A stretch of 64,000 nt of DNA from an uncultured candidate division Zixibacteria bacterium. GTDB taxonomy: Bacteria > Zixibacteria > MSB-5A5 > RBG-16-43-9. The notes under the pieces are model-generated. The model did no database searches. It saw nothing but the letters and a program-made list of their open reading frames with translations, and was not told where the DNA came from. The translations under genes were made by a program, and so were the position numbers. Location of the stretch: the NCBI GenBank assembly GCA_963713865.1, contig OY970208.1, positions 2,496,001-2,560,000 of the forward strand. Reading direction: 5' to 3'. Below, piece after piece: positions 3,228 to 22,842 of the stretch (positions are counted from its first letter, which is position 1; each line of letters opens with the position of its first letter).

Positions 3228-5894
3228 CTACATCTCTTTCAGCAGTTCTTTGATATCATAATCCTGAAAATTCTCTAACGTCTTTTTATTTAAATCGATT
3301 TTATCTTTTTTCAAATTTAATCTGTAAGAACCAACACGATTATTCTCGATCAGTGGTTTTTCTGAATGAGGAAGTTCTCTTTTCAGACGGTAAATGTACT
3401 TCCCTTGGTTATCCCCTTCCTCCAAATCCAGTTTATGAATCCAGCCATCCTCCTTTTTAAAAACTGCCCAGGCTAATTTGAATAAATATCTGAAACTTTT
3501 ATGGCTGAGCAGAAACCTTCTGCCATTTAGAATAATCGTATATTTCCCCTTAACCAAACTTCCATCTAAAATAAGTTTGCTTTTGGTAGAATCTCTTTTC
3601 CAGAAATTGAAGGTAGGGGCGTATTGCCTTACAACCCTACCAATTTTCCCGGACTCTTGAAGCTTTATCTCTTCTTTTAGCTTGATACCCACCTTTTCAG
3701 GAATTATATTTTTCAACTCCTCTAATTTTATTTCCTTAATCTGGTTTTTAGAGGTAATTCCTTTCAGAGATAGTTTCCAGAGAAAATTTCGTCCCAACCC
3801 TGAGACCTTTAATTTTGCTATTTCAATCATATCCTGACCTATCCCAAACTGAACTTGCCATGCTAAATTCTTTAAAATCTTTTCCAATCCCTCCCCGCAA
3901 TTCAAAATCCGGGCAATGGCAGAGGTAGAATCTAAAAGCCAGGCAAGCTCCTGGGCAATCTGGGAGATAAAACCACTTCTCAGACCATATTCATTTTCTA
4001 AATCATATAGAGGAGCAGGAGTTATCCAGTCACAGAAAAACAAAGAAAGTTTAAGCCTGGAAAGCTGCCTGGAGGATAACTGTCCACTTGAGATGGATAA
4101 AAACTCTTTTAACCTTTGCTCTGAGATACTATCCTGAGTAAATCTTCCTTTTAGTTTTTCTTGATAAACCCTGTTCTCTATTTCATGAAAAGTAAGAGGC
4201 GTATAAATCCTTTCACCATCTTTAGTCTTAAGAAGTTCATAAAACCAGCCCAATGGGTCTCCGATTGGATCCATTGTGAACAAATTCGGATTAACCGGTT
4301 CGGATGAGCTTTCTTTTTCCAGTTTTCTCTTGATCGCCAAGCCAGTTTCAATTTTTATCCCCTGGATAGATATGACTTTCCCCAAAGCAGTTACATAAAG
4401 GGCACCTTTTTCATCTGAGGTTAATATATTTTCCTCAATCAATTTTGAAATATTTTCATTTATACCATTTTGATCTCGATTTATAACGTCAGCTGAAAAG
4501 GTGTTGGCTAAATACTTTCTCAACCCTGCAGAATCCTTAGCCAGGCCCGAGGATACCAGGTCGAGGATGACATCCTCTAAATCTATTTTATCCAGAACCG
4601 GAATCAGCTTTTCTTCCTTGCCTTCGACATACTTATCCCAGAGTGAATCGAAATGAAACTGGTTACCTGCTAAAAGAACTGACCTGCCAAACTCTTTTTC
4701 CAGACCGAATCTTCCAGCTCTTCCGGACATATTCTCATATTCATTCCAGGTTAAGGGAACCATAACCCCTTTGTCGGTAAACTCGCCGCTTTCATATTTC
4801 AAGGTTTCTATAAAAACCGTCCTGGCTGGGAGATTTACCCCCATGGCTAAGGTGCTGGTTGCAAATACCAGTTTAATCTCTTTTTCAAGATAGGAATGTT
4901 CGACTAAACCCCTTTCTTCATAGGTTAAATCAGCATTATGGAATGCAATCCCTTTTTGGAGGCAGAATTCTAACTTTTCCTTAAGGCTGGTAACTTCAAG
5001 CTCAGCTAACTTCTCTAACACTTCGGAGGCAGGTTCTCCTTTGAACTCATCTGCAAATAGAATAGCCATCTTGATAGTCTCATTTCTGCTTTTCAGGAAG
5101 ACTAAAACCTGTTCTCCTTTCTCTAAGAGCATCTGGAGATTGGGAAATAGAATTTTTTCTATTTCTTCGCTTTCAACTTCTATGAATTTCTCCTCTCCTT
5201 CTTCCTGAGAGTTATATTCTTTATAAGTAAATATTCCTTTATATAGAATCCCCTGTAAAAGCTCAACCGGTCTCTTTTTCTCTAAAAGGTACTTGCATCC
5301 CAGCCAGGAAGCTAATCTCTCTACCTCCCCCAAGACTGCAGATAAGCCAATAATCTGTGGTTTGTATCCGGAATTCAGAACTTTGAGCAAAGCCAACTCC
5401 AAAACCTGACCCCGTGAGCTGTCTCCGATCATCTGTAACTCATCTATGATCAAAAGGTCTATGTTCCTCAGTAAGTCTAAGTTTTTAAGCAGCAGTTGAT
5501 TGAACTTTTCATATATCATAATACCTAAATCGAAATCACCTTTTTCCAAATCTGAATCAAACTCCCTTCTGTCTTTTGTAGATATAACTATCTTTATCCC
5601 TAAATTTGAATATTTAGTTTGAAAATCTGAAAACTTCTCCTCGGCAATTGCCTTAAGCGGAACCAGATAAACTGTCTTTTTTCGTCTAAAAATAGAACTG
5701 ATAGCCGCCATTTCTCCACAGAATGTCTTTCCGGAAGAAGTAGGGGCTGAGATTATCAGACTCTCCCCATTTAAAAGATTAAAACGCGTAACTGCTGATG
5801 ATTGTAAAGGTAATAACTTTTCCCCCTGACTTTCTTCCCAGGTCTTGATAATACTTTCCGGGATACCATATTTTAATAATTTTTTAACTTCCAT
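3228..5894 (-). CDS. Ski2/Hel308-like DEAD/DEAH-box helicase with C-terminal putative winged-HTH
   Basis: APTSSGKT, IIDELQM, GLSA, AFHNADL, ATSTLAMGVNLPA, MSGRAGR; GGAGG RBS. Confidence 0.9.
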   Translation of the reverse strand: MEVKKLLKYGIPESIIKTWEESQGEKLLPLQSSAVTRFNLLNGESLIISAPTSSGKTFCGEMAAISSIFRRKKTVYLVPLKAIAEEKFSDFQTKYSNLGIKIVISTKDRREFDSDLEKGDFDLGIMIYEKFNQLLLKNLDLLRNIDLLIIDELQMIGDSSRGQVLELALLKVLNSGYKPQIIGLSAVLGEVERLASWLGCKYLLEKKRPVELLQGILYKGIFTYKEYNSQEEGEEKFIEVESEEIEKILFPNLQMLLEKGEQVLVFLKSRNETIKMAILFADEFKGEPASEVLEKLAELEVTSLKEKLEFCLQKGIAFHNADLTYEERGLVEHSYLEKEIKLVFATSTLAMGVNLPARTVFIETLKYESGEFTDKGVMVPLTWNEYENMSGRAGRFGLEKEFGRSVLLAGNQFHFDSLWDKYVEGKEEKLIPVLDKIDLEDVILDLVSSGLAKDSAGLRKYLANTFSADVINRDQNGINENISKLIEENILTSDEKGALYVTALGKVISIQGIKIETGLAIKRKLEKESSSEPVNPNLFTMDPIGDPLGWFYELLKTKDGERIYTPLTFHEIENRVYQEKLKGRFTQDSISEQRLKEFLSISSGQLSSRQLSRLKLSLFFCDWITPAPLYDLENEYGLRSGFISQIAQELAWLLDSTSAIARILNCGEGLEKILKNLAWQVQFGIGQDMIEIAKLKVSGLGRNFLWKLSLKGITSKNQIKEIKLEELKNIIPEKVGIKLKEEIKLQESGKIGRVVRQYAPTFNFWKRDSTKSKLILDGSLVKGKYTIILNGRRFLLSHKSFRYLFKLAWAVFKKEDGWIHKLDLEEGDNQGKYIYRLKRELPHSEKPLIENNRVGSYRLNLKKDKIDLNKKTLENFQDYDIKELLKEM

Positions 5895-5983
5895 TTACCC
5901 CTCCATAGAAAAACAGTCTAAAGTCTATAGTCCATAGGCTATAGTCTTTTTTAGCCTTTAGACTATAGCCTTTTGCCTATATT

Positions 5984-6012
5984 ATAATACTGCCCATTTG
6001 TGCAGTTGTCAA
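5984..6012 (-). promoter_or_regulatory. Sigma70-type promoter of the helicase with a palindrome in the spacer
   Basis: TTGACA-17bp-TATTAT on minus strand; ACTGC-N8-GCAGT in the spacer. Confidence 0.6.
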
Positions 6013-6450
6013 GAAAAAAATAAAAAAAGTGATAAATTTGTCATTGCGAGGAATCCCCTACGGGGACGACGAAGCAATCTGTCTCCTGAAAGATAAACGG
6101 ATTGCTTCGCTCCTTTTAGTCGCTCGCAAAGACACTTTCTGTGTAGTAGCTTGAGTTAGTGGTAGCTCAGACATTCCTGTCTGAGCTTTAAGGAATCCCG
6201 CCTTGGGCGGGATTCTACCAACTTTAAAACAAAAGACCCAGGTTAAGAACAACCCGGGTCTACCAGTTTTTATAAAGAAGAATGGTAAGGAATGGTTATT
6301 TACGGTCACGAATCACGGGCAACAGTCACTCTCTTTTCACTCCAAAATCAATTTCTCAAACTGATCCACCAAACTATTGAAAAGCTCAATCGTTTTATTA
6401 ATCGGCTCAGGAGAGCTCATATCCACACCCGCTTTTTTCAGGATATTAAT
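6006..6450. repeat. Diverged direct repeat copy 1 (pepF 3' end plus downstream intergenic region)
   Basis: Colinear blocks shared with 10649-11236. Confidence 0.9.
6337..6450 (-). pseudogene. 3'-terminal fragment of a second pepF allele
   Basis: Translates INILKKAGVDMSSPEPINKTIELFNSLVDQFEKLILE*, versus ...MTSPEP...KLIME* in intact pepF. Confidence 0.9.
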
Positions 6451-6461
6451 TATAATAAAGA

Positions 6462-6628
6462 TCAAATCTGAGGTACTGGTAGGCCTCGAGATAAAACTAG
6501 TTCTGCCTCCGGCAATATGCGAACAATGCTCTCTTCTGTAAATCGATGCCGACCCATATTATCCTCTTTCCTCAGTCCAGTTTAATGTACTAACTTCTAA
6601 GCTGGACCGAAATATGGGGGGCAGGTCA
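6462..6628 (-). mobile_element. IS3-family (IS407-like) remnant: left end plus truncated orfA
   Basis: Minus strand starts TGACCTGCCCCCC (IS3/IS407-type IRL); ATG at 6557 gives MGRHRFTEESIVRILPEAELVLSRGLPVPQI*. Confidence 0.75.
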
Positions 6629-6684
6629 CTCCTTTCACGTCGCCTTTTGGACCATCATCCATATAAGGCAGGACGTAAAGAACT

Positions 6685-7122
6685 TCACTTCTTTCTCTGC
6701 CCGACCTTCTTGTCACGCTCACGGTATTCTTTTTCGACCTTTTGCCTTTCTTGCTTTTCTACTCCACGATATTCCTTCTCGATCCTGGCTCTTTCTTCAT
6801 CATTTGCCTGATGTTGCCTGTAATGATCTCCGAACTTCGCATCCTTGCCGTAATTGTATTTCCTGAAGACGAAAACTCTGCGGTCTTCGTGCCTGGGGCG
6901 GTAATAATACCCATTGCCCACAAAATAGAAATCATAGAAATCGCAGTCTACGACCGTCGCACCCCACTGTTGATATCGATGGCAGTCATAGCAATAACGG
7001 GGATGGTCGTAAGAGTATGCCGTTCCGCCAGATATGCCTCCTCCACCGTACAAAACGCACCCGCCTATCACCAACCCCAATATCCCCAGGAGAACCCCTA
7101 AAACCAAGTTTCTGCTTGGCAT
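6685..7122 (-). CDS. Hypothetical lipoprotein-like protein, Tyr-rich with charged tail
   Basis: ATG at 7122 after AGGAGG; hydrophobic signal ending IGGC. Confidence 0.7.
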   Translation of the reverse strand: MPSRNLVLGVLLGILGLVIGGCVLYGGGGISGGTAYSYDHPRYCYDCHRYQQWGATVVDCDFYDFYFVGNGYYYRPRHEDRRVFVFRKYNYGKDAKFGDHYRQHQANDEERARIEKEYRGVEKQERQKVEKEYRERDKKVGQRKK

Positions 7123-7551
7123 TTCTGCCTCCTTTCTTGGTTTGTTGATTGTTTTTAGCCACTTGAGTGGCTTCTCGCCCAGCTTAACAAACCTGGTTCT
7201 AAAAGTCAAGGATTTTATCTAATCTTCTCCACGTTTTTCATCACCGAGGTTTTTTCGGACTGGCTTCAGCTCCTGATTATTAGGTGCAGTTTGATAAGCC
7301 AGGGAGCCATCCAAATTCTCAAGCTGCTTTGAGATATGTTCAGGTTAGCTACAGGGGTTAATTTTGTAATTTATTAAACTAAAAGAGAATACACGAGGGG
7401 TGAGTTAATATATTTTGGGAGAGAAAAACTACCCCTCTAAGGTCATAAACCCTCCTGTCCATCAGAACCACTCACTATTTCTCTAACTGTAGCAAGCAGG
7501 TATAGGCATCCTCGCCCCGCTGTGCGAGTATTTTGCACACACACCCCTGAA

Positions 7552-7614
7552 CTACTTCAAAAATCTCCAGCATTCCCATCCGGAATGGCTTTGTTTGTGC
7601 TTCAAGCGTCCGAA
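7552..7614 (-). pseudogene. Duplicated 3'-terminal fragment of the 8913-10010 gene
   Basis: 63 bp near-identical to 8913-8975; FGRLKHKQSHSGWECWRFLK* versus ...WRFIK*. Confidence 0.85.
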
Positions 7615-7641
7615 TACCATTGTCAGGCGATGCTGGTTAAA

Positions 7642-7866
7642 CTACGGCTTTCTCTTGCGCCCAATGATGACCAATACAATTCCACCGGCAAGCGCTAATC
7701 CGCCAAAGAGAGGTGGCACCGGAAACCTCGTCTTGGCTTCTGCGCTGGTTTTGAAGGGGCCAATGTGGATGCCCTTCACGTGCGTGGTGAATGTGATGAA
7801 TTGTAAAAGAAGGACCAAGACGCCGAGGATAATGAGAACGAGTCCTATAAACATTATCGGTTTCAT
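7642..7866 (-). CDS. Small two-TM membrane protein (DUF3185-like)
   Basis: ATG 7866 with AAGGAG RBS; MKPIMFIGLVLIILG...HIGPF...PVPPLFGGLALAGG pattern. Confidence 0.7.
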   Translation of the reverse strand: MKPIMFIGLVLIILGVLVLLLQFITFTTHVKGIHIGPFKTSAEAKTRFPVPPLFGGLALAGGIVLVIIGRKRKP

Positions 7867-7909
7867 GCGTTTAAGCTCCTTTTTTGAGAAATCTTGCGAG
7901 TGCAAACGA

Positions 7910-8059
7910 CTACATCGGTTTGCGTCCTGTAATGACTCTGACCAGCACCACCACGATAGCGATAACCAGCAGAGCATGAATTACTCCGCCCATAGTGTAG
8001 CCGCTCAACAATCCAAGCAGCCACAAAACCAAAAGAATCACACAGATAGTCCAAAGCAT
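7910..8059 (-). CDS. lmo0937-family small membrane protein (49 aa, below the ORF-track cutoff)
   Basis: Manual translation MLWTICVILLVLWLLGLLSGYTMGGVIHALLVIAIVVVLVRVITGRKPM; AGGAG RBS. Confidence 0.85.
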   Translation of the reverse strand: MLWTICVILLVLWLLGLLSGYTMGGVIHALLVIAIVVVLVRVITGRKPM

Positions 8060-8163
8060 ATTCGGCTCCTTTCCGGCGAACAATGTCGCCTAATGTTAGA
8101 GTTAAATATGGAACCAAAACTGATCGAAACTTCATCCATCAGGAGGCCCGCACCTGCAACAAT

Positions 8164-8838
8164 TTAATTTGAACCGGCTTGAGCTTGCGCCGCCTTTTTC
8201 AGCTTGTCGTTCGCAAAAATGGCAACTTCAACGCGCCGGTTTTGCTGACGACCATAGTCCGTATCGTTTGAAGCGATTGGGTTCATCTCACCCAGGCCGA
8301 CCATGGAAATCCTTGAACCGGGAACACCACGACCCATTAGATAGTTGGTAACAGATTGAGCACGACGTTCGGACAATTTTAGGTTATAGTCTTCACTGCC
8401 GCTGTTGTCCGTATCTCCTTCAATGAGGATGTCCGTGTCGGGGTATTTGTTCAAAATCTTGGCGAGACTCTCGATGTTTGTTTTTGCCTGCGGTCGCAAG
8501 TCCGATTTATCCCAATCGAAAAGAAGGCCCGAATCAAACGTGATCTTGATTCCTTCTCCTATGCGCTCGATCCTCGCTCCTTTCAGATCCGCCCTTATCG
8601 CTGCGGCTCGCTTGTCCATCTCATTACCGATCAGAACCCCGGCTGTTCCCCCGACTGCCGCCCCGATGATGGCGCCAACGGCAGTGTTTCCTGCCGCATG
8701 TCCGATAACACCACCAATAGCTCCTCCGGCGCCTGCGCCGATCGCTCCGCCCTTGGCTTTGTTACTCCAGGAGGCGCACCCGTTACTGAGGGTGAAGAGC
8801 AAAGCCCCACACAACAACAGAATGACTGCTTTTTTCAT
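8164..8838 (-). CDS. OmpA-family lipoprotein with glycine zipper
   Basis: Lipobox-like SNGC, Gly zipper, LFDWDKSDL, NLKLSERRA, NRRVEV; RBS favours ATG 8838. Confidence 0.92.
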   Translation of the reverse strand: MKKAVILLLCGALLFTLSNGCASWSNKAKGGAIGAGAGGAIGGVIGHAAGNTAVGAIIGAAVGGTAGVLIGNEMDKRAAAIRADLKGARIERIGEGIKITFDSGLLFDWDKSDLRPQAKTNIESLAKILNKYPDTDILIEGDTDNSGSEDYNLKLSERRAQSVTNYLMGRGVPGSRISMVGLGEMNPIASNDTDYGRQQNRRVEVAIFANDKLKKAAQAQAGSN

Positions 8839-8912
8839 GGTGAACACTCCTTAAATTAGGATACTTTGTGATAAAGCAATTAAGTCGCTCAGCGATCTAG
8901 ACGCGATTTGGA

Positions 8913-10010
8913 TTACTTTATAAACCTCCAGCATTCCCATCCGGAATGGCTCTGTTTGTGCTTCAAGCGTCCGAAGCGCGGCGGGCGGTAGAATACCTCT
9001 ACCCCCTCGCTCATCCCCGGCAGGATGTAGGCAGAGTCTTCGGCGCAATCGCAGTGCTCAATGGATGCCGGTGTTTGTCCCTTCAATGTGGTCAAGGCCT
9101 GATCGTAGACACTGTCGACGGAGTGCAAGAATCCCTGCACGCGATCCACATCGTACACGGCAACAGTGACCGCCGTCTGGATATCTTCTGTCAGCCGGTC
9201 GAACGCATGCTGAGCGAACATCTTCGCAAATGCAGACACATCTCCACCTGGCAAACCGACATCCAGCTGCTCAAATGGACCGAGATCGAAGTAAGAAAGA
9301 TGAAGATTGTCGGGAGAAGCGATGATGTATCGCCCGTACGGAGCAAGCGCGGCGATGGTGTGGGGTGTGCCGTTGAAACACGTGGAGAGTACGATGAGAT
9401 CGAACTTCGTGGAATCGCCTGTGATGCGTATCAATCCGTCGGCTAGGTCATCTACCGTGAACGTCCGATGCGAGTACGATGCATCGTAGCCGGCGCCGCC
9501 GAATTCAGGGATTTCGTGACCGAAGTAGAGGAACAATCTCACCAGCTGAGGTCGCTCTTCCGCGCGGAAGCGGTGATAGAGCTCCACTTCAGGATCGAAG
9601 CGAGATGGTCCCTGACCGCGCCAGTACGATTCTTTGGCAAGGAGCCGTCCGTTCCGGTAATAATAGAATTTTCCGTCACGGAGAGGAAAAAAGAGCAAGA
9701 TGTGCCTCCTGCGTCTTTCATGAAAGATGAACACCTCGGCTTGCGTGTTCCGCTCAGCGACCGTTTTCGCTTTTGCGAGAGCCTCCTCATCTGCTCTGTA
9801 CGCATTGCCGCGGGCATCATGATAGAGGTAGCCACCATCGCCGTGGATGATGCATACGATTGAGTAGCGCGGTGGTGTGAGCATACTCTCCTCCCCAAGC
9901 GGAGTTACACGGTGAGCAGGGAGGATGGAACTGCACGAAGAGAGGAACAACGCGAGTGCCACGCAGGAGCTGACACCCGCAAAGAGCATCGCAGCATCCA
10001 TGCGTGGCAC
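8913..10010 (-). CDS. Putative lipoprotein, possible clostripain/clan CD cysteine-peptidase fold
   Basis: LSSC lipobox; YFGHE and FDLIVLSTCFNG resemble His/Cys dyad motifs; start uncertain. Confidence 0.55.
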   Translation of the reverse strand: MPRMDAAMLFAGVSSCVALALFLSSCSSILPAHRVTPLGEESMLTPPRYSIVCIIHGDGGYLYHDARGNAYRADEEALAKAKTVAERNTQAEVFIFHERRRRHILLFFPLRDGKFYYYRNGRLLAKESYWRGQGPSRFDPEVELYHRFRAEERPQLVRLFLYFGHEIPEFGGAGYDASYSHRTFTVDDLADGLIRITGDSTKFDLIVLSTCFNGTPHTIAALAPYGRYIIASPDNLHLSYFDLGPFEQLDVGLPGGDVSAFAKMFAQHAFDRLTEDIQTAVTVAVYDVDRVQGFLHSVDSVYDQALTTLKGQTPASIEHCDCAEDSAYILPGMSEGVEVFYRPPRFGRLKHKQSHSGWECWRFIK

Positions 10011-10075
10011 TCGTGAAAAATCGTTTGAGAGGGCTTTGCATACCCAAGGCCGAGAATGTTCGCTCTCTGGAGAGA

Positions 10076-10525
10076 CTACGCCAGAAGGATCACAATGATT
10101 ATGATCAAGAGTAGCGCGACCAGGCTGATGGTTACCGTCTGGGCGGCCTGCTCCATATCCTGCACGACATAATCAGAGAAAGCATCCAGTTGCTCATCGG
10201 ACACACGCTCGTAACCATTAAGGCCCGTGAGCTCATCTTGTTTCTCTTGAAGGGTAGATTTTAAGAGAGCAATGCCGGCTTGATCGTGTTTCGAAATCAG
10301 CGGTGAGCTTTGAACTTTGTCCAGCGCTTTAGACATTTTTTCAAATGATTTGTTGAGGATTTCACGTTTCTGCAATGGATCGGTCGTCGCTTTCACTTTG
10401 AGTGAGGCGTTGTTAAAGTACTTTTGAAGACCGTCTTGTCCAAACGCAATCCCCGCATAAGCCATGACAAGCATCATCATGACAAACATCATGACGATCG
10501 ATCGGAAAGCTTTTCGTCCTGTCAT
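10076..10525 (-). CDS. Hypothetical secreted protein with C-terminal membrane anchor
   Basis: Signal peptide, hydrophobic C-terminus, AGGAGG RBS. Confidence 0.75.
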   Translation of the reverse strand: MTGRKAFRSIVMMFVMMMLVMAYAGIAFGQDGLQKYFNNASLKVKATTDPLQKREILNKSFEKMSKALDKVQSSPLISKHDQAGIALLKSTLQEKQDELTGLNGYERVSDEQLDAFSDYVVQDMEQAAQTVTISLVALLLIIIIVILLA

Positions 10526-10648
10526 AACTCCTCCTTTCGTGGAATTGAAAAAAGTTAATTGGTTACCCGCGACGAAATGATTCCCATCTGATTTACCAGA
10601 TTATGCTCACACGCACTTTCTGATCAAAAATATAACTCCCCCTAAATC

Positions 10649-11236
10649 TTGTCAAGAAAAAAATAAAAAACGTGATAAATCTATCATTGCGGGGAATCCC
10701 GCAGTATGCGGGACGACGAAGCAATCCGACTCTGAAAATTTAAAATGTAGCGGAGGTCTTCAGACCTCCATCTCTTGGAAGACTAAAGTCTTCCGCTACC
10801 AAGGGCTCGCAAAGACACTTTCTGTGTAGTAGCTTGAGTTAGCGGTGGGTTAGGCTTCCTACCTCACCATAGGGAACAGGCAGTCCTGGCAACGGATCCT
10901 TAGGAGATGCCTGTTCTACCAACTTTAAAACAAAAAACCCAAGCTAAGAGCAACCTGGGTCTACCAGTTGATTAACTATTTACACTCAAATTTATCTCAC
11001 TCTAATATTAATTTGAATGTGTCCGTCGGGTCCCCCGACCCGACGGAAGAATAGCGATCCTAAAAGTGTCACCCTACAAAAATCTTTACGGTCACGAATC
11101 ACGGACAACAGTCATCCTCTTTTCACTCCATTATCAATTTCTCAAACTGATCCACTAAGCTGTTGAAAAGCTCAATCGTTTTATTAATCGGTTCCGGGGA
11201 AGTCATATCCACACCTGCTTTTTTCAGGATATTGAT
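10649..11236. repeat. Diverged direct repeat copy 2 (includes the functional pepF 3' end)
   Basis: Colinear with 6006-6450. Confidence 0.9.
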
Positions 11237-13009
11237 CGGATAATCAGATGAGCCAGTCTTAAGAAAACTCTGATACTGGGCTAAGGCTTCCTTATTACCC
11301 TTATGAATCTCCGTGGAAAGATAGGTGGAAGCCGCATAAGAGGTGGCATATTGATAGACGTAGAAGTTCCGGTAGAAATGGTAGATTCGAAGTGCACCTA
11401 AATCGCTTATCGAATCCCGGTAAAGCTCCGGACCCCAATACTTCTGTAAAATCTCTCTATATACTTTTCTGGTCACACTGGCTGACAGAGCTTCTCCTTT
11501 TTCCATCTTCTCATGAGCTGTTTTATCAAAATCCGCTAAAAGAGTCTGCAAATAGAAAGTCCCGATGATCTGCTGAATATAATATTCCAATAGATAGAGC
11601 TTCTGGTTTTTGTCTTTAGCGTGATCGATCATATATTGTATAAGAAGCGCCTCATTGGTAGTAGAGGCAACTTCTGCGGTGAAAATAGAGTGCCCTCCAT
11701 AAACATAAGGTTCGTTCTTACTAGTATAGTAACGATTTAAACAATGACCCATCTCATGGGCAACGGTAAACATATTTTCCAGAGTATTATTATAGTTTAG
11801 TAACATATAAGGATGTGTGGCATAAGATCCCCAGGAATAGGCACCGCTATTCTTACCTTCTGTTTCAAATACATCCACCCAACCTGAATTGAATCCCATC
11901 TTTAAATCTTTTAAATAATCTTTTCCCATGGGAGCTAACGCCGTTTGAATAATCTTCAAAGCAGAATCATAAGGTATCTCCATCTTCGCTTCCGGGACTA
12001 AGGGAACGTAAAGGTCGTAAGTGTAGAGTGTATCTACTTTGAGAACCTTTTTTCTCAGGGATATATATCTGTGCAGAGGTTCTAAATTATTGCTTACCGC
12101 TTGAATTAAATTCTCATAAACCGAGACCGGAATGTTGCTATTATCCAGGGAGGCTTCTAAGCAGGAATTATATTTACGTGCCCGGGAAAAGAAAATATCT
12201 CTATTAAGCTGAGTAGTTAAAGTTGCTCCTAAAGTATTCAGATATTTCAGATAGGTCGAATTATAAGCATAACTTGCATCCCGCCTGACACGTCGGTCAG
12301 TCGATTCTAAAAACTTAGAGTATCTTTCTTTGGTGAGCTGAACCTCCTCCCCATTCTCATCTTTAATCGAGGGGTATTTTATATCCGCATCATCTATCAT
12401 CGTGAAGATCTTCAAGGGACCCTGGGCCAAATCTCCGGACAAGGCTAAAATCCTCTCCTCTTCAGGAGACAGGATATGAGCTTTGGTGCGCAATAGATTA
12501 TCAAAATAGAACTGATATAAACCCAACCCTTTTTCCGATTGAATGAAGCTTTTGATCTCTTCATCCGGAATGGTCAGTATCTCCGGCTGGATAAAAGAAG
12601 TGGCTTCATCTAACTGGGTATTCAGACCTGTTATGCGATCGGACAATTGCTGGAAATTGGAATTCCTGGTATCCTCATCTAATTTCATATTGGCATAAAC
12701 GTACAGTTTTCCCATAACGATTGAAACGCTGTCATTCAAAGCCAAACAGTCATAAAGCTTTTTACCAGATTCAGCTAAATGTCCCTTAAAAGCGGAGACC
12801 TGAGGGATAAGCTCTTTTATCTTAATGAAATCTTTTTCCCAGGCTTCAGTCGTGGGGTAGATATCTTCCAGTTTCCATTTGTATTTGTCCGCTATATCTG
12901 AACGCTGGGGAATCGCTTTGGTTTTGGACTGGGCAAAAACGTTAGCCACGCAAAGCAACAGAAAAAGTATAACCACCCCTGAGACGAAAAATCTCTCAAC
13001 CTTTTTCAT
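11123..13009 (-). CDS. pepF: Oligoendopeptidase F (M3B) with signal peptide
   Basis: KWKLEDIY, SGAYSWG, HEMGH, AEVASTTNE, FYVYQYA. Confidence 0.95.
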   Translation of the reverse strand: MKKVERFFVSGVVILFLLLCVANVFAQSKTKAIPQRSDIADKYKWKLEDIYPTTEAWEKDFIKIKELIPQVSAFKGHLAESGKKLYDCLALNDSVSIVMGKLYVYANMKLDEDTRNSNFQQLSDRITGLNTQLDEATSFIQPEILTIPDEEIKSFIQSEKGLGLYQFYFDNLLRTKAHILSPEEERILALSGDLAQGPLKIFTMIDDADIKYPSIKDENGEEVQLTKERYSKFLESTDRRVRRDASYAYNSTYLKYLNTLGATLTTQLNRDIFFSRARKYNSCLEASLDNSNIPVSVYENLIQAVSNNLEPLHRYISLRKKVLKVDTLYTYDLYVPLVPEAKMEIPYDSALKIIQTALAPMGKDYLKDLKMGFNSGWVDVFETEGKNSGAYSWGSYATHPYMLLNYNNTLENMFTVAHEMGHCLNRYYTSKNEPYVYGGHSIFTAEVASTTNEALLIQYMIDHAKDKNQKLYLLEYYIQQIIGTFYLQTLLADFDKTAHEKMEKGEALSASVTRKVYREILQKYWGPELYRDSISDLGALRIYHFYRNFYVYQYATSYAASTYLSTEIHKGNKEALAQYQSFLKTGSSDYPINILKKAGVDMTSPEPINKTIELFNSLVDQFEKLIME

Positions 13010-13335
13010 GGCACCTCCTCAATTTTTAATGGTTTATCTTTTCTTTTAATTACTCACCGTTAACTACCCACTAAATACGGTCTTTCTTCGAAAAGTTGCA
13101 AAAAATGACTGCTGAATAAGGAGATATCAAAAAGTGATTTTTCTCATTTAAAATCTACAGAAGTTTGATATTTTTTTAAGTGCATTCTAATAGCTATAAT
13201 AATGTAATTTTCTATATAGTTAGTAATGCCTTTTTTTTTAAGGAATGCAAGATATGAACAACAACATGGCTTTGAATCACAAACATGCAACTTAAACACG
13301 AAAGAATCCTAAATACCAATAACTATCATTTCCAA

Positions 13336-13418
13336 TGCCGAAGGGGGGATTTGAACCCCCACGTCTTGTGGACACTGCGCCCTGAACACAGCGTGTCTGC
13401 CAATTCCACCACTTCGGC
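13336..13418 (-). tRNA. tRNA-Leu(CAG), CCA not encoded
   Basis: GCCGAAG acceptor stem, GGAATTGGCAGAC D-arm, CTGTG-TTCAGGG-CGCAG anticodon arm, long variable arm, GTTCAAATC T-loop. Confidence 0.95.
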
Positions 13419-13670
13419 TCTGGGCTAATATAATTTTTCAGCAAGTCTTGAGCAAGAGAAATTTAAAAGATTTGTAGTATAATCTGTCATTCTGAGGAAG
13501 TTCGTCTTTGGCGAGACGACCGAAGAATCTGCTTAATTTCAGTGTGCCCGCAGAATGAACCCACTCAAAAATTGTAGGGATGGGGTAACCCCACCCCTAC
13601 AAAAAATCGCTTTTATGTCCGTCGCCCTCCTTAGGCGGACTGACCCGTTGGAATAAACAAATTTGAATTC

Positions 13671-15212
13671 TTACGCTTTAAACCTATCGGTAATCTCTTC
13701 TTCCTCATCTACAGAGAAGACCTTAAACTCATCTGCAGATAAATTCTCATCCTTTTCTGGCAGGATTTCTATTCTCAACATCCGGCACAGCTTTTTTATC
13801 CTGCTCTCTTTCCCTTCAGATAAGATCCGATAAACTTCTGGATGAATACAAAGCTTGAATTTTTTATCCACGGAGCGAACTTTTGCTCTTTTGAACCATC
13901 TTTCAATTTTGGCTGCCAAGGTTTCCTTGGATAAAACCCTGCCAATTCCGTTACAGGTGGGACAGGGCTGGCTGAAAGTATAAAGCAGGCTGGGTCTTAT
14001 CCTCTCCCTTGTCATCTCGACCAGTCCAAAATCTGATATGGGAAGGATGCTATGTTTTGAGCGGTCATTTTTAAATGAGGCTTTGAATTCCTCAAAAACT
14101 TTCTTCCGATTTTCAAAAGATTCCATATCGATAAAATCGACAATTATCAGTCCCCCTATATCTCTGAGTCTTATCTGACGGGCTATCTCCCGGGAAGCTT
14201 CTAAATTAGTCTTCAAGATAGTGGTCTGCTGGTCTGACTTTCCTACAAATCTGCCGGTATTAACGTCGATAGTAACCATAGCTTCAGTCTGATCGATGAC
14301 TATATACGCACCCTTTCTTAACCAGACCCTTCGATCTAACATTTTTTCAATCTGGCTTTCAATATTGTAGAAATCGAATATCGGTATATCCTTATCATAA
14401 AGGATTACCTTCTGTCTGAGACCAGGTGCTATCACCTGTAGATATGAGCGTATTTTTTTGTACTCCCACTTAGAATCGATCATCACCTGATTAACCTCAG
14501 ATGATAGCTGATCCCGGATCACTCTGGCAACCAGCCCCATATCCTTATGCACCAGTGCCGGAGCCTTTTTTTTCTCCGCCTCCCTTCTTATCTTTTTCCA
14601 TAAATTCAAAAGAAGCCGGATATCATTTTTAAATTCTTTCTGATTTTTCCCTTCAGCCACAGTGCGTATAATCGCACCAAACCCCTCTGGTTTTAGCTCT
14701 GAGACTACTCTTTTCAGCCTTTTTTTCTCTTCACGCTCAATTATCTTTCTGGATACCCCTATATGCTCTTCCCCGGGAACTAATACCAGATATCTTCCAG
14801 CTAAAGAAAGTTGTGAGGTAACCTTAGGTCCTTTAGTACCCATCTGCTCTTTCATTATCTGAACCAGAATTTCCTGCCCTTTTTTCAAAAGCTCCTCAAT
14901 CTTTTGTGGGGCTTTCTTTTTCTTTCTCTGGGCTAACTCCTCCTCTTCCAGGAAATCTGCTTCATACAACTCGGTGATGTCCGAGATATGTAAAAAAGCA
15001 CTCCTTTCCAGACCAAGATCTAAAAATGCTGCTTGCATCCCTGGAAGTACTGCCTTAACTATCCCCTTGTAAATATCCCCCACTATCCTTTCACTTTCAG
15101 GCCTTTCAACCCAGAGCTCCATCAATTTAGAATTTTCTAAAACCGCAATCCGGGTTTCAAATTCCGATGAGTTAATTATAATATCTTTCTGCAACTTAAT
15201 CTCTCCTGTCAT
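13671..15212 (-). CDS. rng: Ribonuclease E/G family
   Basis: GDIYKGIV..VLPGMQAAF, TIDVNTG, RLRDIGGLIIVDFIDM, CPTC. Confidence 0.93.
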   Translation of the reverse strand: MTGEIKLQKDIIINSSEFETRIAVLENSKLMELWVERPESERIVGDIYKGIVKAVLPGMQAAFLDLGLERSAFLHISDITELYEADFLEEEELAQRKKKKAPQKIEELLKKGQEILVQIMKEQMGTKGPKVTSQLSLAGRYLVLVPGEEHIGVSRKIIEREEKKRLKRVVSELKPEGFGAIIRTVAEGKNQKEFKNDIRLLLNLWKKIRREAEKKKAPALVHKDMGLVARVIRDQLSSEVNQVMIDSKWEYKKIRSYLQVIAPGLRQKVILYDKDIPIFDFYNIESQIEKMLDRRVWLRKGAYIVIDQTEAMVTIDVNTGRFVGKSDQQTTILKTNLEASREIARQIRLRDIGGLIIVDFIDMESFENRKKVFEEFKASFKNDRSKHSILPISDFGLVEMTRERIRPSLLYTFSQPCPTCNGIGRVLSKETLAAKIERWFKRAKVRSVDKKFKLCIHPEVYRILSEGKESRIKKLCRMLRIEILPEKDENLSADEFKVFSVDEEEEITDRFKA

Positions 15213-15276
15213 ATCTACCTGACTTTAGTCAGGTAGGTTTTATGCCCCGCCACAGCGGGATTGTTAATTGTGCCAT

Positions 15277-16065
15277 TCAAACTCTTCCATTCCGGATGAT
15301 ATGTAAGGCTTTTTCTATTTTTTCTAAATCCACCCTGGTATTCATACAGGGTCCAAAGGGACGTTTATTTAAAATTCCATAAACTGGAATAGGATAAACA
15401 TCCTGAATCCCGCTGGTCAAATCTCTTTCACAGGCAACCGCCACAATCACCGTCGGTCTTTTCTCCACTATCACCTTACGAGCCAGGGTTCCGCCGGTTG
15501 CAATCGAAAGAGGAGTATAGTATTTATCTCCCAATTCGATTATCTGACTGATCTGGCATTTGCCGCACATTCGGCAGTTGCGGTAATCCGTGGTAACTTT
15601 TTGCGGACAATCGTAATTCTGCAGACAGTGAGAAAGAAGAATCAAAATTCGCTCCGGGTTAATCCTCTTCCTGGTGGCATTGAACAGGGAATTATTAACC
15701 GCCACAAATGATTGTCTGATCTGGTCCTTTGACCATCCGAAAAGTCTGCTTAAAATTAGATTAATCGGGAAAAGAATTTTCAAGGTAATCTGTTTTTCAC
15801 CATGCGGGAAAAGAAAATCTTTTTCAGTTAAGGCCGATAAAATTATCAGGAAAAGACCACCGCTTATTATTGCCAGACCTATCCCCAGGAAGAGCTTCAC
15901 TCCTAAAGACAGGTATGGATTCAGACTACCCAGGCGGGGAGAAACTAAATACCAGAATCCGATTACCATAAGGACTAACACCAGAAGACTTAAAATCGAG
16001 AGAAATAAAAAAATACCTTTACCCTTGTTTTCATTGCTGGCTATTCGATATTCGCTGTTCGACAT
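15277..16065 (-). CDS. DUF116 family protein
   Basis: LLSHCLQ, CRMCGKC, TGGTLA, AVACERDLTSG. Confidence 0.85.
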   Translation of the reverse strand: MSNSEYRIASNENKGKGIFLFLSILSLLVLVLMVIGFWYLVSPRLGSLNPYLSLGVKLFLGIGLAIISGGLFLIILSALTEKDFLFPHGEKQITLKILFPINLILSRLFGWSKDQIRQSFVAVNNSLFNATRKRINPERILILLSHCLQNYDCPQKVTTDYRNCRMCGKCQISQIIELGDKYYTPLSIATGGTLARKVIVEKRPTVIVAVACERDLTSGIQDVYPIPVYGILNKRPFGPCMNTRVDLEKIEKALHIIRNGRV

Positions 16066-16142
16066 TTGATATTCGCTTTTAGCTTTTTGAACTTTTTTTC
16101 AGCTACTTGCTACCAGCTACTTGCTTTTTTGACTTTTGCCTT

Positions 16143-17117
16143 TTAACCCAGCTTCTCCCCAATTTCTATCCTGTATCCTCTCAAAAACTCTTCAGCTTCA
16201 AGTTTTTTCTTACCTTCCAATTGAAGCTCCTTTAATCTTAAAATACCTTTCTGAGTTTGAACTAATAACCCGCTTTTCTGGTCTGCTTTAATTATTTTCC
16301 CAAACTCTGTTGAAGAGTTCTCATCTATCTCTACTTTAGTTTTATAGACCTTCAATAGTTTACCTCTCAAAAAAGTAAATGCTCCCGGTTGAGGAGAAAG
16401 ACCTCTTATCAGGTTATTTATTTCCTGAGCTGATTTCGACCAGTTGATTCTGCACAACTCTTCAGTTATCTTAGGAGCTAAGCTTACTTCTAAATCATTC
16501 TGAGCATAGGTTCTCACTTCTCTTTTTTCGATCAAGTCTATGGTCTCCAATAAAACTTCTGCTCCAATTATGGAAAGTCTTAAAGAAAGCTCTCCAAAAG
16601 TTTCCTCCGGATATATCTCAACCTCTTTTTGCAAGATAATCCCTCCAGTATCCACTTTCTTCTGGATAAAAAATGTTGTCAGACCGGTAATCTTTTCACC
16701 CTTAATGAGTGCCCAGTTTATCGGGGCAGCCCCTCTGTATTTCGGCAGAAGAGAGGCATGCAGATTGATTGTGCCCGAAGGAGGTAAACTGAAGATTCTC
16801 TCCGGAAGAATCCGGAAAGCTACAACCGTAATCAAATCCGGCTTTAATTCATTAAGAGCTCGATAGAATTCCTCAGATTTCAAATCCTCAGGAGTTAAAA
16901 CTTTTCTTGTGGATCTCCCACTGGATCCATTCTGGACAATTTCGGACAGGTTATGCTTCTCTGCAAATTCTTTCACTGGCGAAGGTAAAAGCTTCAAACC
17001 TCTCCCTCTGGGTTTATCCGGCTGAGTTACTATCCCTGCGATCTGATGCTTACTATTCAAAAGCAGTTCCAGACTGGGCAGGGCAAACTCAGGAGTTCCC
17101 ATAAAAACAATCCGCAT
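16143..17117 (-). CDS. fmt: Methionyl-tRNA formyltransferase
   Basis: MGTPEFA, TQPDKPRGRG, NLHASLLPKYRGAAPI. Confidence 0.97.
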   Translation of the reverse strand: MRIVFMGTPEFALPSLELLLNSKHQIAGIVTQPDKPRGRGLKLLPSPVKEFAEKHNLSEIVQNGSSGRSTRKVLTPEDLKSEEFYRALNELKPDLITVVAFRILPERIFSLPPSGTINLHASLLPKYRGAAPINWALIKGEKITGLTTFFIQKKVDTGGIILQKEVEIYPEETFGELSLRLSIIGAEVLLETIDLIEKREVRTYAQNDLEVSLAPKITEELCRINWSKSAQEINNLIRGLSPQPGAFTFLRGKLLKVYKTKVEIDENSSTEFGKIIKADQKSGLLVQTQKGILRLKELQLEGKKKLEAEEFLRGYRIEIGEKLG

Positions 17118-17264
17118 ATTTTTCGTTATTCGCTTTTCGCTATTGGCTTTTCGCTGTTTGTTTTTTAATATTCTTTTTAAGTTACTTGCTATTCCACCTT
17201 TGAACTATTGAACTTTTGAACCCTTGAACTTTTTAGCATTCAGCCTTTAGACTATAGACTATTT

Positions 17265-17771
17265 TTATCTTTCTTCTGAGATTTTTCTCAATTTTTTTCC
17301 TAAGAGTGTCCTTTTAATAGTGCTGAGATGGTCAATGAACAAAACGCCGTTCAGATGATCAATCTCGTGTAATAAAGCCCTACTCAAAAGCCCTTCTCCT
17401 TCAATCTCGACTTTATTCCCGGATAAATTCAAACCTCTTACTTTAACTTTACGTGCCCTGGTCACATTCTCATAGATCCCAGGAGCTGAAAGACATCCTT
17501 CCTCAATTACCTGCTCCTCTGAAGACTCAATTAATTCCGGATTGAGCATAATTACCGGTTCTTCTTCTCCGTCTATATGAATCCGGTCTATCACGAAAAT
17601 CCTTTTGGCAACTCCAACCTGATTAGCCGCCAGCCCGATCCCTTTAATAGACTTCAAAGTCTCCACCATATCCGCGGCTAACTTCTTGATTTCATCATCG
17701 ATAACTGAAATCTCCTCAGCCCTTCTTCTCAATACCGGATTCCCGTATTTTCTCAGCTTTAAAATAGCCAT
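17265..17771 (-). CDS. def: Peptide deformylase
   Basis: GIGLAANQVG, EGCLS, HEIDHLNG. Confidence 0.97.
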   Translation of the reverse strand: MAILKLRKYGNPVLRRRAEEISVIDDEIKKLAADMVETLKSIKGIGLAANQVGVAKRIFVIDRIHIDGEEEPVIMLNPELIESSEEQVIEEGCLSAPGIYENVTRARKVKVRGLNLSGNKVEIEGEGLLSRALLHEIDHLNGVLFIDHLSTIKRTLLGKKLRKISEER

Positions 17772-18001
17772 ACTATCTCGCTTATCGCTTTTAGCCTTTC
17801 GCTATTTGTTTTCTAACCCTGAACTGTTCGTGTTTACCAGGTCTCCTGAGCTGGTAAGTTCAAATCCCCTCTCCTTTTTAAGGAGAGGGTCAGGGTGATG
17901 TTTCCATTTTCGCTATTCGCTGTTCGTTATTCGCCTTTTGAACTTTTTTTCAGCTACTTGCTACCTGCTACCAGCTACATGCTTTTTTGACTTTAGCCTT
18001 A

Positions 18002-18322
18002 TTACTCTCCTTTCTCCACCCTTCCCGCGATAGAGCTTTTAAGAAACTCTATTTTCACTTCATCCGCCACTTTCAAAACTACGACATTTTCCTTCTCATT
18101 GAACCCTATAATTGTACCGAACATCCCTGAGTTAGTTACAACCTTATCCCCTTTTCTAAGGCTCTCTAACATTAGCCTGTGTTCCTTCTGCCTTTTCTGC
18201 TGAGGTCGGATTAAGAGTAAATAAAATACACCAATAATCAAAATCCAGGGTAGCCAGAGCAATATCCCTCCACTACTCTGTTGTCCGCCTTGTGTCCCCA
18301 TAGCATAAACGGATTCAAACAT
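18002..18322 (-). CDS. yajC: Preprotein translocase subunit YajC
   Basis: FYLLLIRPQQKRQK, LRKGDKVVT; next to tgt. Confidence 0.95.
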   Translation of the reverse strand: MFESVYAMGTQGGQQSSGGILLWLPWILIIGVFYLLLIRPQQKRQKEHRLMLESLRKGDKVVTNSGMFGTIIGFNEKENVVVLKVADEVKIEFLKSSIAGRVEKGE

Positions 18323-18489
18323 TTTTACTCCTTTCGAGTAAGTTTAAATTTTTTACGCATCCAAATCTTCTTTCTTTGTGAATAATTCGGCGGGCAAGGT
18401 TGCCCGCTCTACGAAAGAGTAATTGATTAGACGTCGTAGGCAGGGCTCCCGACCCTGCTAATTTAAGTTTTTTAGAGACCCTGTAAAAT

Positions 18490-19641
18490 CTATTGAGTCT
18501 CTTCTCCTTTTGAATTCGAAGATTTATACTCCTCTAAAAATTGTTTCCTCCATTTTGTGAAAAATCCTTGCATAATCGACTCTCTTATCTCTCTCATCAG
18601 GCTAAGATAAAAATGTAAGGAGTGAATGGTAGCCAATCTCAGCCCGGCTATTTCCCCGCTTTGAAAAAGGTGTCTTAAATAAGCACGGGAATAATTCTTA
18701 CAAGCCAGACAGTCACAATTTTCATCTATGGGAGTGAAATCCTCCGCATACCTGGCAGCTTTGATAATCATCTTCCCCTTGCGAGTAAAGATCGTTCCGT
18801 TACGTGCATTTCTGGTAGGCAGAACGCAATCGAACATATCCACTCCGACAGAAACCCCTTCCACAATATCCTCCGGAGTGCCCACTCCCATTAAATATCT
18901 GGGCTTATCCTCCGGCAAATATTTTAGAGTTTGATCAACGATCTCCAGCCTCATATCTTTAGGTTCTCCCACTGAAAGACCGCCTAAAGCCAGCCCTGAG
19001 AAGTCCAGATCTACCATAAAACTGGCACACAGCTCCCTGAGGTTCGGATAAATCCCGCCTTGAATTATTCCGAAAAGAGTTTGCTTTTCTTTTTTCTCAT
19101 TTTTTTCATGCTCGAATTTAGACCTTTTTGCCCAGTCCATGGTGAATTCAGTTGCTCTTCTGGTAAAAGGATAGGAAGAGGGGTAAGGGACGCATTCATC
19201 TAAAGGCATAATGATATCCGCACCCAACGAATGTTGTATCTCTATAACCTTTTCCGGAGTGAACTGATGAGAAGAACCATCCAAATAAGATTTAAAACTA
19301 ACCCCTTCCTCAGATACTTTAGCTAAGGGATTCAAACTAAAAACCTGATACCCTCCGCTATCCGTTAGCATAGGTTTTTTCCAGCTCATAAAACTATGCA
19401 GCCCCCCAGCTCTCTCAATTAATTTATGTCCGGGTCGGAGATATAGATGATAGGTATTACCCAGGATTAGCTCCGCCCCTAAATCTTCCATCTCTTTTGA
19501 GCACAGGGTCTTGATTGAAGCCTGAGTTCCCACTGGCATAAAAACCGGGGTGTTTATCTCTCCATGCGGGGTATCCAGCCAGCCTGCCCGGGCAGAAGAT
19601 TCTTCATCCTTTTTTACAATCTTAAAATCGAAACTATTCAA
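18490..19641 (-). CDS. tgt: tRNA-guanine transglycosylase
   Basis: TPVFMPVGT, NTYHL, TDSGGYQVFSL, DCVLPTRNARNG. Confidence 0.97.
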   Translation of the reverse strand: MNSFDFKIVKKDEESSARAGWLDTPHGEINTPVFMPVGTQASIKTLCSKEMEDLGAELILGNTYHLYLRPGHKLIERAGGLHSFMSWKKPMLTDSGGYQVFSLNPLAKVSEEGVSFKSYLDGSSHQFTPEKVIEIQHSLGADIIMPLDECVPYPSSYPFTRRATEFTMDWAKRSKFEHEKNEKKEKQTLFGIIQGGIYPNLRELCASFMVDLDFSGLALGGLSVGEPKDMRLEIVDQTLKYLPEDKPRYLMGVGTPEDIVEGVSVGVDMFDCVLPTRNARNGTIFTRKGKMIIKAARYAEDFTPIDENCDCLACKNYSRAYLRHLFQSGEIAGLRLATIHSLHFYLSLMREIRESIMQGFFTKWRKQFLEEYKSSNSKGEETQ

Positions 19642-19643
19642 AT

Positions 19644-20219: not shown

Positions 20220-20275
20220 ATTTTACTCCTTCTTATTTAGCTGGTAGCAGGCAGCTATTAGCTTGTAGCTTTTTA

Positions 20276-21668: not shown

Positions 21669-21831
21669 AAATTTTGCTATTTGCTATTGGCTTTTCGCTT
21701 TTTGCTCAAACCATCCCGTCGGGTCAGGGGACCCGATGGTCACATTAAATTTGCTTGAAGCTTTGTGTTTTAGCTCCTTGCTGCAAGCTACCTGCTACTT
21801 GCTTTTTATTTTCCTTTTTCCATCTTCCTTT

Positions 21832-22581: not shown

Positions 22582-22842
22582 TTTTTAGCTGGTAGCTATT
22601 AGCTTGTAACTTTTTAAAACCTTTGAACTATTGAACTTTCAGTGTTTGCCAGGTCCCCTGACCTGGCAATTTTCCCGTCGGGTCAGGGGACCCGACGACC
22701 ACATAAACTTTCTTTTTTAGCTCCTTGCTACATGCTACCTGCTCCTTGCTTTTTGTTTTTTTATCCCTTGAACAATTGAACTTTTGAGCCTTTGAACCTA
22801 TTATTTCTGCTTTTAGCTACAAGCTACCTGCTCCTTGCTTTT

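Follow-up and report, generated by a model that had tools for sequence, protein, structure and literature searches.

Why do a helicase gene and fmt, two unrelated genes, share a short stretch of nearly identical DNA that is read in a different frame in each of them? The question concerns the window, the 64,000-nt stretch of a Zixibacteria genome analyzed here, for which a first-pass annotation made from the letters alone had placed a 37-nt match at 4254-4290 and 16910-16946 and proposed a tiny mobile element that adds peptides to proteins. Both 37-mers lie at these positions with 31 of 37 bases identical, and translation at the two loci bears out the difference in frame. Neither 37-mer reaches 26/37 anywhere else in the window's own 2.72-Mb genome (G000, one contig, 94% complete), and shuffled queries (five per copy) attained at most 25/37. 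BLASTN-short and nhmmer searches with the 37-mer returned only the two strong copies plus weak matches, and it was from these weak matches that a 21-nt unit was recognized.

Orthologous loci were then compared across near and more distant genomes, including the relatives G001 and G002, whose loci were aligned with G000, and across contigs from the sequencing runs X3 and X16. The alignments display empty sites and exact boundaries at both genes, giving inserts of 42 nt rather than 37 (4249-4290 and 16905-16946, both on the minus strand), in each of which an outer 21-nt element, A, is split by an inner 21-nt element, B (TCC-N5-GGATCC-N4-GGA). The match and the in-frame insertion proposed at first were thus correct, but the insert consists of two nested elements and not of a single 37-nt one. 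The fmt gene (16143-17117, minus strand) is intact, encodes 324 aa and scores 280.6 bits with TIGR00460, above the cut-off; its composite encodes SEIVQNGSSGRSTR, and the approximately 14 additional residues that had been suspected are exactly 14 in the orthologue alignment and face a gap in solved Fmt structures. Three of 30 fmt loci, all from this genus, carry the insert, and the other 27 show an exact 42-nt gap. The inner B (16916-16936, minus strand) matches the profile, and an X16 contig lacks precisely those 21 bases. The Hel308/Ski2-like helicase (3228-5894, minus strand, 888 aa) is also intact, with PRK02362 and Hel308 as best matches, both under their equivalog cut-offs. Its composite, in frame and with the third base of a codon as entry point, occurs in 3 of 20 loci, again all of this genus, and is absent from 17; G001 and G002 have forms of the inner B (4260-4280, minus strand; profile match) that are nearer to the B consensus. 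The sequence has many relatives in the genome, and distant orthologues lack the insert.

The same inserts are present in three independent genome assemblies and one X3 contig; in a read alignment over 14.5 kb, no row for the fmt or helicase inserts appears among the matches listed. Placed on an AlphaFold2 model of Fmt, the insert is the sole stretch with pLDDT below 50 (residues 60-70), located between a helix and a strand, and elements in genes are predicted to contribute short loops to the protein. Such elements would probably be translated and not spliced, in which case selection should keep only lengths divisible by three within genes, in loops and termini.

The third copy announced between skp and lpxD is real, a decayed A+B composite on the plus strand, but it begins one base earlier than reported (62423-62464). 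Compared with the 37-mer alone it reaches 25/37, near the chance tail, whereas a 42-nt profile trained on 13 A+B composites from other genomes gives it 30.1 bits, rank 3 in the genome, against a maximum of 14.8 in three Markov-simulated genomes. Its end lies 6 nt upstream of the lpxD ATG, the copy is identical in G001 and G002, and the spacer is 21-36 nt shorter in three genomes of other genera, though poorly alignable there. All three G000 composites fall inside this one window. Two 22-nt family members are also found in it: one in the loop of a REP-like hairpin (10884-10905, plus strand), identified by pattern (TCC-N7-GGATCC-N3-GGA) and profile and missing from the orthologous G001 site, and a decayed one (36542-36563, minus strand) with 24.8 bits on the 22-nt profile, for which simulated genomes give no match at 20 bits or above. 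The elements differ in sequence from the REP families of the window, as had been noted, yet they often insert into REP hairpins.

A and B belong to a family of 16-22-nt double-hairpin elements. Exact A occurs 24 times in G000 and 70 times in G001, and the 22-nt variant 24 times in G000; family counts of 24, 24 and 6 compare with 0-1 in three Markov-5 simulated genomes. The family is found in 32 of 41 genomes, and a reversed-pattern control gave zero in all 41. Comparison of G001 with G000 reveals clean empty sites without target duplication, and target-site duplication was rejected on these empty and filled pairs. Of 85 clean 15-30-nt indels, 36 consist of two hairpins that abut (at least 5 bp; 4.5-5.2 expected), as do 18 of the 48 that had not been selected for A (3.0 expected). 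A TC...GA hairpin opens 34 of the 39 two-hairpin indels (control, 16%), the second stem takes eight complementary forms, and terminal repeats measure 0-1 nt in 35/39, with a maximum of 3. By thermodynamic folding the hairpins are weak, no better than shuffles in all five tested, and Rfam 15 at the gathering score matches one tRNA alone in the window and none of the elements. Four matches to elements were seen in viral contigs, possibly by chance. Literature searches, on Zixibacteria among other subjects and confined mostly to papers outside subscription, found no description of the family.

Of 170 insertion sites, 86 have G at -1, 97 have A at +2, 85 have G at +3 and 131 have G at +4; this target motif is weak, holding little information outside about four positions. 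The 21-mers lie in ORFs in 44 of 85 cases and the 22-mers in 5 of 43; in G000 alone the figures are 12/24 and 2/24 (p=0.003). Replication-strand bias is absent for A (22/40) and for the 22-mer (34/57), with an ORF control of 73%. BamHI-like cutting at G^GATCC was rejected, because its staggered ends would give rise to a duplication of 4 nt, most targets are without GGATCC, and GGATCC itself occurs 394 times against 387 expected.

How the composite came about can be read from its intermediate states. At fmt, the empty, A and A+B states are all observed across genomes and contigs, the A-only allele coming from one X16 contig (depth 6.05, with 25 other differences over 478 nt), which could reflect precise loss of B rather than its later arrival. 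At two further sites G000 holds A only where G002 holds A+B. We consider it very probable that the mobile element was built in two steps: A would have arrived first, with B following later and splitting the two G of TTTG^GATCC within A; an 18-nt and another 21-nt member of the family are found at this spot in A as well. It is unlikely that at these sites the composite moved as a 42-nt unit, having arrived in fmt and the helicase in one step, with the A-only alleles produced by later loss of B. Such a unit would agree with the 24 distinct flank groups among 51 composite matches, with the six of 12 alignable sites that are fully empty in G000, with the one composite lying inside another A and with the confinement of the G000 composites to a single window. 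It is at odds with the A-only orthologues at three sites, with the use of the same spot in A by other guests, with the different B variants of fmt and the helicase, and with the 16 B/A loop combinations among the 24 sites. An origin with no dedicated enzyme, through template switching by a polymerase, slippage or conversion driven by microhomology, is improbable. The NAGGA-like 3' flank of the targets does resemble the 3' end of A, and many targets are hairpins (-3.2 kcal/mol for reconstituted sites versus -2.3 for permuted flanks), but both copies of similar sequence are retained unmerged, the inserts do not copy their flanks, and near-identical elements recur across genera at unlinked sites. 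Chance or an assembly artefact, for which short length alone would speak, has a negligible probability given the three assemblies and the X3 contig, and is refuted by the shuffle and simulation controls.

As to what moves the elements, an enzyme of the HUH/RAYT type is a tentative candidate, at somewhat less than even odds. G000 has eight Y1 genes, among them two RAYT (REP-associated tyrosine transposase) genes in the window (31191-31871 and 52250-53023, both minus strand, NF047646 above the cut-off), which are candidates in trans only; the flanks of the former carry its own REP-like hairpins and not the A/B family. None of the eight is flanked by elements, although one degenerate copy lies about 0.6 kb from one of them, and 2 of 54 copies fall within 5 kb of a Y1 gene (1.6 expected). 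Y1 genes occur in 39/41 genomes, some of them without element A, and their number correlates with that of the elements (rho 0.47), although a correlation among kin carries little weight here. No circle or excision intermediate was seen. According to the accessible parts of the sources, HUH Y1 enzymes bind to small hairpins and work through ssDNA circles as intermediates (PMC6006769), and the RAYTs tested cut at C|T or CA, from which the element cut sites differ (PMC8266576). Less likely is a mover outside the Y1 group, either an unrecognized nuclease-ligase of the host or of a mobile element, or an RNA intermediate with an outside reverse transcriptase. The physical separation of the elements from Y1 genes and the missing strand bias favor it, and an RNA route has been suggested for the double-hairpin elements of fungal mitochondria on the grounds that no duplications accompany them (PMC2800124, accessible part). 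Such a route is opposed by the failure to find RVT_1 in the single 94%-complete contig of G000, and by the nearly equal numbers of A copies sense (22) and antisense (18) to the nearest gene. Cas1 was likewise looked for in G000 and not found, and both absences speak for a Y1 mover. Insertion by an IS110-family recombinase seems very unlikely, since double-stranded circles of only 21 bp are hard to envisage, information in the target motif is largely confined to about four positions and the elements have no evident resemblance to IS ends by eye. G000 does contain three IS110 transposase matches, each adjoining a REP-like hairpin, and the members IS621 and IS1594 are described as targeting REPs in the accessible part of one source (PMC3184786). 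Linkage of the elements to IS110 genes was looked for in G000 and none was found.

We favor, with a probability of about 0.58, the reading in which B sits in A, both stemming from a family of 16-22-nt elements that insert cleanly without target duplication and are likely moved as ssDNA, in trans, by a candidate HUH (Y1/RAYT-like) transposase. The intermediate is predicted to be a closed 'dumbbell' with a loop at either end of a 4-7-bp duplex; it would open at an R^TC junction and then be joined 3' of a G in the target. A broader reading, doubtful when taken with all its steps, would make these elements a 'nicked dumbbell' superfamily of 16-22 nt, approximately the smallest possible mobile DNA. 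Its members would move about as single-stranded minicircles closed by two loops, and an enzyme sensing their shape plus the TC...GA foot would open them and insert them with no duplication; hairpin modules would be swapped, elements would parasitize one another, and essential proteins, among them Fmt, DNA ligase and DnaK, would steadily gain loops of 6-7 residues.

Cyanobacterial DNA elements shorter than 30 nt were reportedly described as mobile in 2008, and the A/B elements would be some of the smallest in all known mobile DNA. Many empty/filled pairs with exact boundaries are available in this lineage, together with an essential gene seen in three states, a sequence grammar and a target motif, and the family represents a measurable source of new protein loops. 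Given oligonucleotide-sized substrates and a short list of candidate enzymes, the question of the mover is directly testable; if the enzyme were found, it would provide a chemistry for scarless insertion of short DNA.

The comparison originally drawn was with Rickettsia palindromic elements, which Ogata et al. are said to have described as a Rickettsia sequence family, each member a single long palindrome of about 100-150 nt. Those elements too, as far as the accessible text goes (PMC3733652), insert in frame into intact housekeeping proteins that are unrelated to one another, and do so in different frames, but the A/B units, at 16-22 nt, are several times shorter, show empty and filled alleles between close relatives, and nest. 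They also fall outside the definition of MITEs in length and terminal repeats; MITEs measure 70-300 bp and carry terminal inverted repeats of 15-30 bp (PMC3733652, accessible part). REP/REPIN sequences with their RAYT (TnpA-REP) are likewise short non-autonomous hairpins, single or dimeric, sometimes in frame in ORFs, and intragenic REPs exist, according to the accessible parts of four papers (PMC3733652, PMC8266576, PMC3116915, PMC6006769); RAYT genes occur in the A/B genome, as with REPs. REPs, however, are described there as having a single stem of 5-13 bp with a GTAG/CGTC tag at its foot, and flank their cognate RAYT gene, whereas A/B copies lack the tag, have two stems mostly of 2-4 bp starting TC (with GTAG only in the variable loop of some A copies), do not flank RAYT genes and use REPs as landing sites. 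Non-autonomous elements of the IS200/IS605 type also leave no target duplication, but have a fixed 4-5-nt 5' target where A/B show only G at -1 (86/170), and IS608 and ISDra2 target the lagging strand, a bias that A/B do not share. Mitochondria of Allomyces contain double-hairpin elements (Paquin et al. 2000, in PMC2800124, accessible part) that have two hairpins, by name, and are mobile without flanking duplication. These elements are organellar, and were compared with A/B by description.

Closer than the Rickettsia elements are the small dispersed repeats of Nostocaceae, SDR1-8, reportedly described by Elhai et al. in 2008 as 21-27 nt long and inserting into genes. The A/B elements appear to act like them, a likeness at the level of published description. 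SDR5, of 21 nt, inserts precisely between nt 3 and 4 of HIP1, and the accessible parts of the SDR papers name no mover (PMC4390886, PMC5861425, PMC13756078). SDR5 and A/B have in common a length of about 21 nt, many dispersed copies and precise insertion, with empty and filled sites, within another short palindrome. HIP1 (GCGATCGC) is not the A/B target and is not enriched in G000 (2 copies versus 3.2 expected); A/B follow another, weak motif without a fixed palindrome. They differ from the SDRs, finally, in belonging to another phylum and in forming a modular family of 16-22-nt two-hairpin elements that nest in their own members.

The 37-nt stretches that the first-pass annotation had noticed within fmt and a helicase gene are, as claimed, identical at 31 of 37 positions and read in different frames. 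Scanned without gaps on both strands, the 2.72 Mb genome holding the window (G000) gave fewer than 26 of 37 matches at the best other site, and shuffled queries (five per copy) reached a maximum of 25. Both hosts are intact, Fmt scoring above the TIGR00460 cut-off and the second being a Hel308/Ski2-like helicase. Among the best matches returned by searches of 41 genomes, orthologue comparison sets the insert at exactly 42 nt in both genes (fmt, 16905-16946; helicase, 4249-4290; both on the minus strand), and its carriers, 3 of 30 loci for fmt and 3 of 20 for the helicase, come in each case from G000, G001 and G002, which belong to one genus; the remaining loci lack it. The orthologues without insert bear out the proposed insertion, while the single 37-nt unit gives way to two units of 21 nt. 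In the G005 helicase, 7 residues unrelated to this insert have been added a few codons 5' of its position, suggesting a tolerant loop.

Taking out the central 21 nt of the insert (element B, TCC-N5-GGATCC-N4-GGA) leaves element A, TCC-N6-GGATCC-N3-GGA. Further copies were found genome-wide, with exact patterns in G000 numbering 24 for A, 24 for a 22-nt N7/N3 form (the 22-mer) and 6 for B, compared with 0-1 per genome in three simulations by an order-5 Markov model. Profile searches at 20 bits matched about 40 A and 57 22-mers (0-2 in simulations), and sister families of 18 and 17 nt have 20 and 10 copies with one mismatch allowed (simulation, 0). The A pattern is present in 32 of the 41 genomes (70 copies in G001, 47 in G016, 43 each in G002 and G007) and in 1 of 7 from other orders; the reversed pattern occurs in none of the 41. 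A GTDB scan gave at least 119 stretches with A, compared with about 17 chance matches by our own arithmetic, and 71 of the 80 matches listed are titled Zixibacteria or 'uncultured Ignavibacteria', from which we infer that A follows the Zixibacteria lineage. Two exact copies 1 kb apart on a short contig titled uncultured Clostridia (L196, L197) may represent either mis-binning or transfer beyond it. GATC is strongly depleted throughout the genome (9272 versus 14786 expected), and G001 has a separate family of 27-nt polymorphic inserts (L082:5247, L244:425, L265:16856, L268:2133).

Using 1.56 Mb of G001 (80 tiles, about 58%, 40 of them selected for holding A), of which 1.29 Mb aligned to G000 at 86.5%, we collected clean indels with both flanks at least 70% identical; their commonest length was 21 nt. 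Formal folding gave two abutting hairpins of at least 5 bp in 36 of 85 indels of 15-30 nt, compared with 4.5 expected from shuffled and 5.2 from random genomic sequence, and in 18 of 48 from the tiles not picked for A (3.0 expected). In 34 of 39 two-hairpin indels (16-22 nt, at least 4 bp; control, 16%), the first hairpin is readable as TC...GA and the second comes after it, the second stem taking eight complementary forms (TCC/GGA, CC/GG, CCC/GGG, CAC/GTG, TGC/GCA, TGCA/TGCA, TAC/GTA and TC/GA). Certain loops, GAATTT and TCAA among them, turn up repeatedly. Of 131 copies of A, 117 pair position 4 with position 9, mostly as G-T. The hairpins are weak, none of five folded element sequences being better than its own shuffles, and the proposed structure draws its support from covariation, not energy. 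Terminal repeats measure 0-1 nt in 35 of the 39 indels and never exceed 3 nt, indicating that the target is not duplicated.

The composite of A and B (INTERMEDIATES) occurs 20 times in 6 of the 41 genomes, from two genera, and in 28 metagenome stretches; pooled, 51 matches form 24 flank groups. Of the twelve alignable across the site to G000, six are empty there, three are 21 nt shorter (two clearly A alone, one doubtful), two are the window's own composites and one is unclear. At fmt, spanning contigs came from two of four sequencing runs: that of X16 (16640-17117, 25 substitutions) lacks exactly the 21 bases of B at 16916 and that of X3 has the complete composite, so that with the orthologues the empty, A and A+B states are all seen. 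The order of events would be A first, followed by entry of B into A, although precise loss of B would give identical A-only alleles. Eight spaced matches in the G001 tiles have guests at this same spot of A (B in two, a different 21-mer in four, an 18-mer in one and a seemingly unrelated sequence in one), and one site has A within an A that holds B. Overall, we give a probability of about 0.9 to mobile elements assembled in two steps.

The decayed third copy reported between skp and lpxD also held up, at 62423-62464 (plus strand): against a composite profile built from 13 copies in other genomes it reaches 30.1 bits (simulated maximum, 14.8), a score exceeded in G000 only by those of the two genic copies (55.3 and 51.7). 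G001 and G002 share it without a single difference. Three genomes from other genera have a spacer shorter by 21-36 nt, which aligns too poorly to show a clean empty site. The GGGA end of the third copy, 6 nt upstream of the lpxD ATG (62460-62473), may act as ribosome-binding site for that gene; G003 shows a comparable stretch of purines there, with no recognisable element. All three G000 composites lie within 58 kb inside the window, which was chosen for two of them, and single A copies are dispersed.

With simple ORF calls of at least 100 codons, 44 of 85 A copies lie inside ORFs compared with 5 of 43 22-mers (G000 together with the first 40 tiles of G001, an orthologous pair counting as two), and 12 of 24 compared with 2 of 24 in G000 alone (p=0.003). 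None of the six G001-specific two-hairpin inserts whose length is not a multiple of three lies in an ORF; of the 24 others, 10 are outside ORFs. Where the frame would read the common A loop as TAG, the three genic copies all use different loops; among non-coding copies, that TAG is present in 21 of 41. The ORF, length and TAG patterns are those predicted for translation of the inserts, not splicing. Sixteen G001-specific inserts are in frame and 15 of their hosts have Pfam matches, including an NAD-dependent DNA ligase, an Hsp70, a class II tRNA synthetase and RsmB. In the AlphaFold2 model of Fmt (mean pLDDT 88, 26-sequence alignment), the insert, between helix 47-54 and strand 72-74, is the sole stretch below 50, as partly expected from its coverage by only 3 of the 26 rows.

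Flanks of 170 non-redundant A and 22-mer sites, including a few from other phyla that may be chance matches, prefer T at -2 (83) and G at -1 (86), and on the 3' side A at +2 (97), G at +3 (85) and G at +4 (131). Insertions directly or one codon 3' of an ATG (L104, L107, L109, L080:4398-4430) show a TG^ consistent with this motif and, if the ATG in question starts the gene, give an N-terminal extension. Many non-coding copies lie within or adjoin loops of REP-like hairpins, which probably explains why empty sites, once reconstituted, fold more stably than permuted controls (-3.2 versus -2.3 +/- 0.1 kcal/mol). One such hairpin holds two 18-nt elements head to tail (G000:C1:2589928-2589963), and a REP-like hairpin also adjoins each of three copies of an IS110-family element (G000:C1:196736, 1082635, 2437330), two with a shorter, apparently frameshifted frame. 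Window repeats at 6039-6080 (about 42 nt) and 13485-13530 match many unrelated contigs from four runs of sediment, soil and wetland, and resemble widely distributed REP-like hairpins. A REP family lies near the RAYT gene at 31191-31871, and intergenic heptamer/octamer tandem arrays occur at 16026-22848.

With its ends joined, any member would form a circle of one short duplex and two loop caps, the duplex in A and B being GGATCC paired with GGATCC. HUH Y1 enzymes bind small hairpins and have circular single-stranded intermediates in the accounts cited (PMC6006769; PMC8266576), and their chemistry would fit blunt insertion, hairpin substrates and a short one-sided target. G000 has eight Y1 genes, two in the window (31191-31871 and 52250-53023), and neither a reverse transcriptase nor Cas1 was found in this genome, which is 94% complete. 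Against a Y1 mover, none of the eight is flanked by elements, Y1 genes occur in 39 of the 41 genomes, and the elements lack strand bias, a GTAG tag and known cut sites. A trans-acting HUH/RAYT-like enzyme is the preferred candidate, at somewhat less than even odds; another enzyme or an RNA route is somewhat less likely, and IS110 or enzyme-free copying less probable still.

The finding is well supported as real and adds to the mobile repeats of very small size, the comparative evidence being unusually complete; our literature search, thin in subscription journals, found no published description of a Zixibacteria double-hairpin family. In-frame insertion is common to these elements, Rickettsia palindromic elements and intragenic REPs (PMC3733652, PMC3184786, PMC3116915), but the defining features of either class are absent here. 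Fungal mitochondrial double-hairpin elements are likewise described as lacking duplications (PMC2800124). SDR5 of Nostocaceae, reported as a 21-nt repeat inserted precisely between nucleotides 3 and 4 of HIP1 (PMC4390886, PMC5861425, PMC13756078), differs in that target and, compared by description rather than by sequence, appears to work in a similar way.
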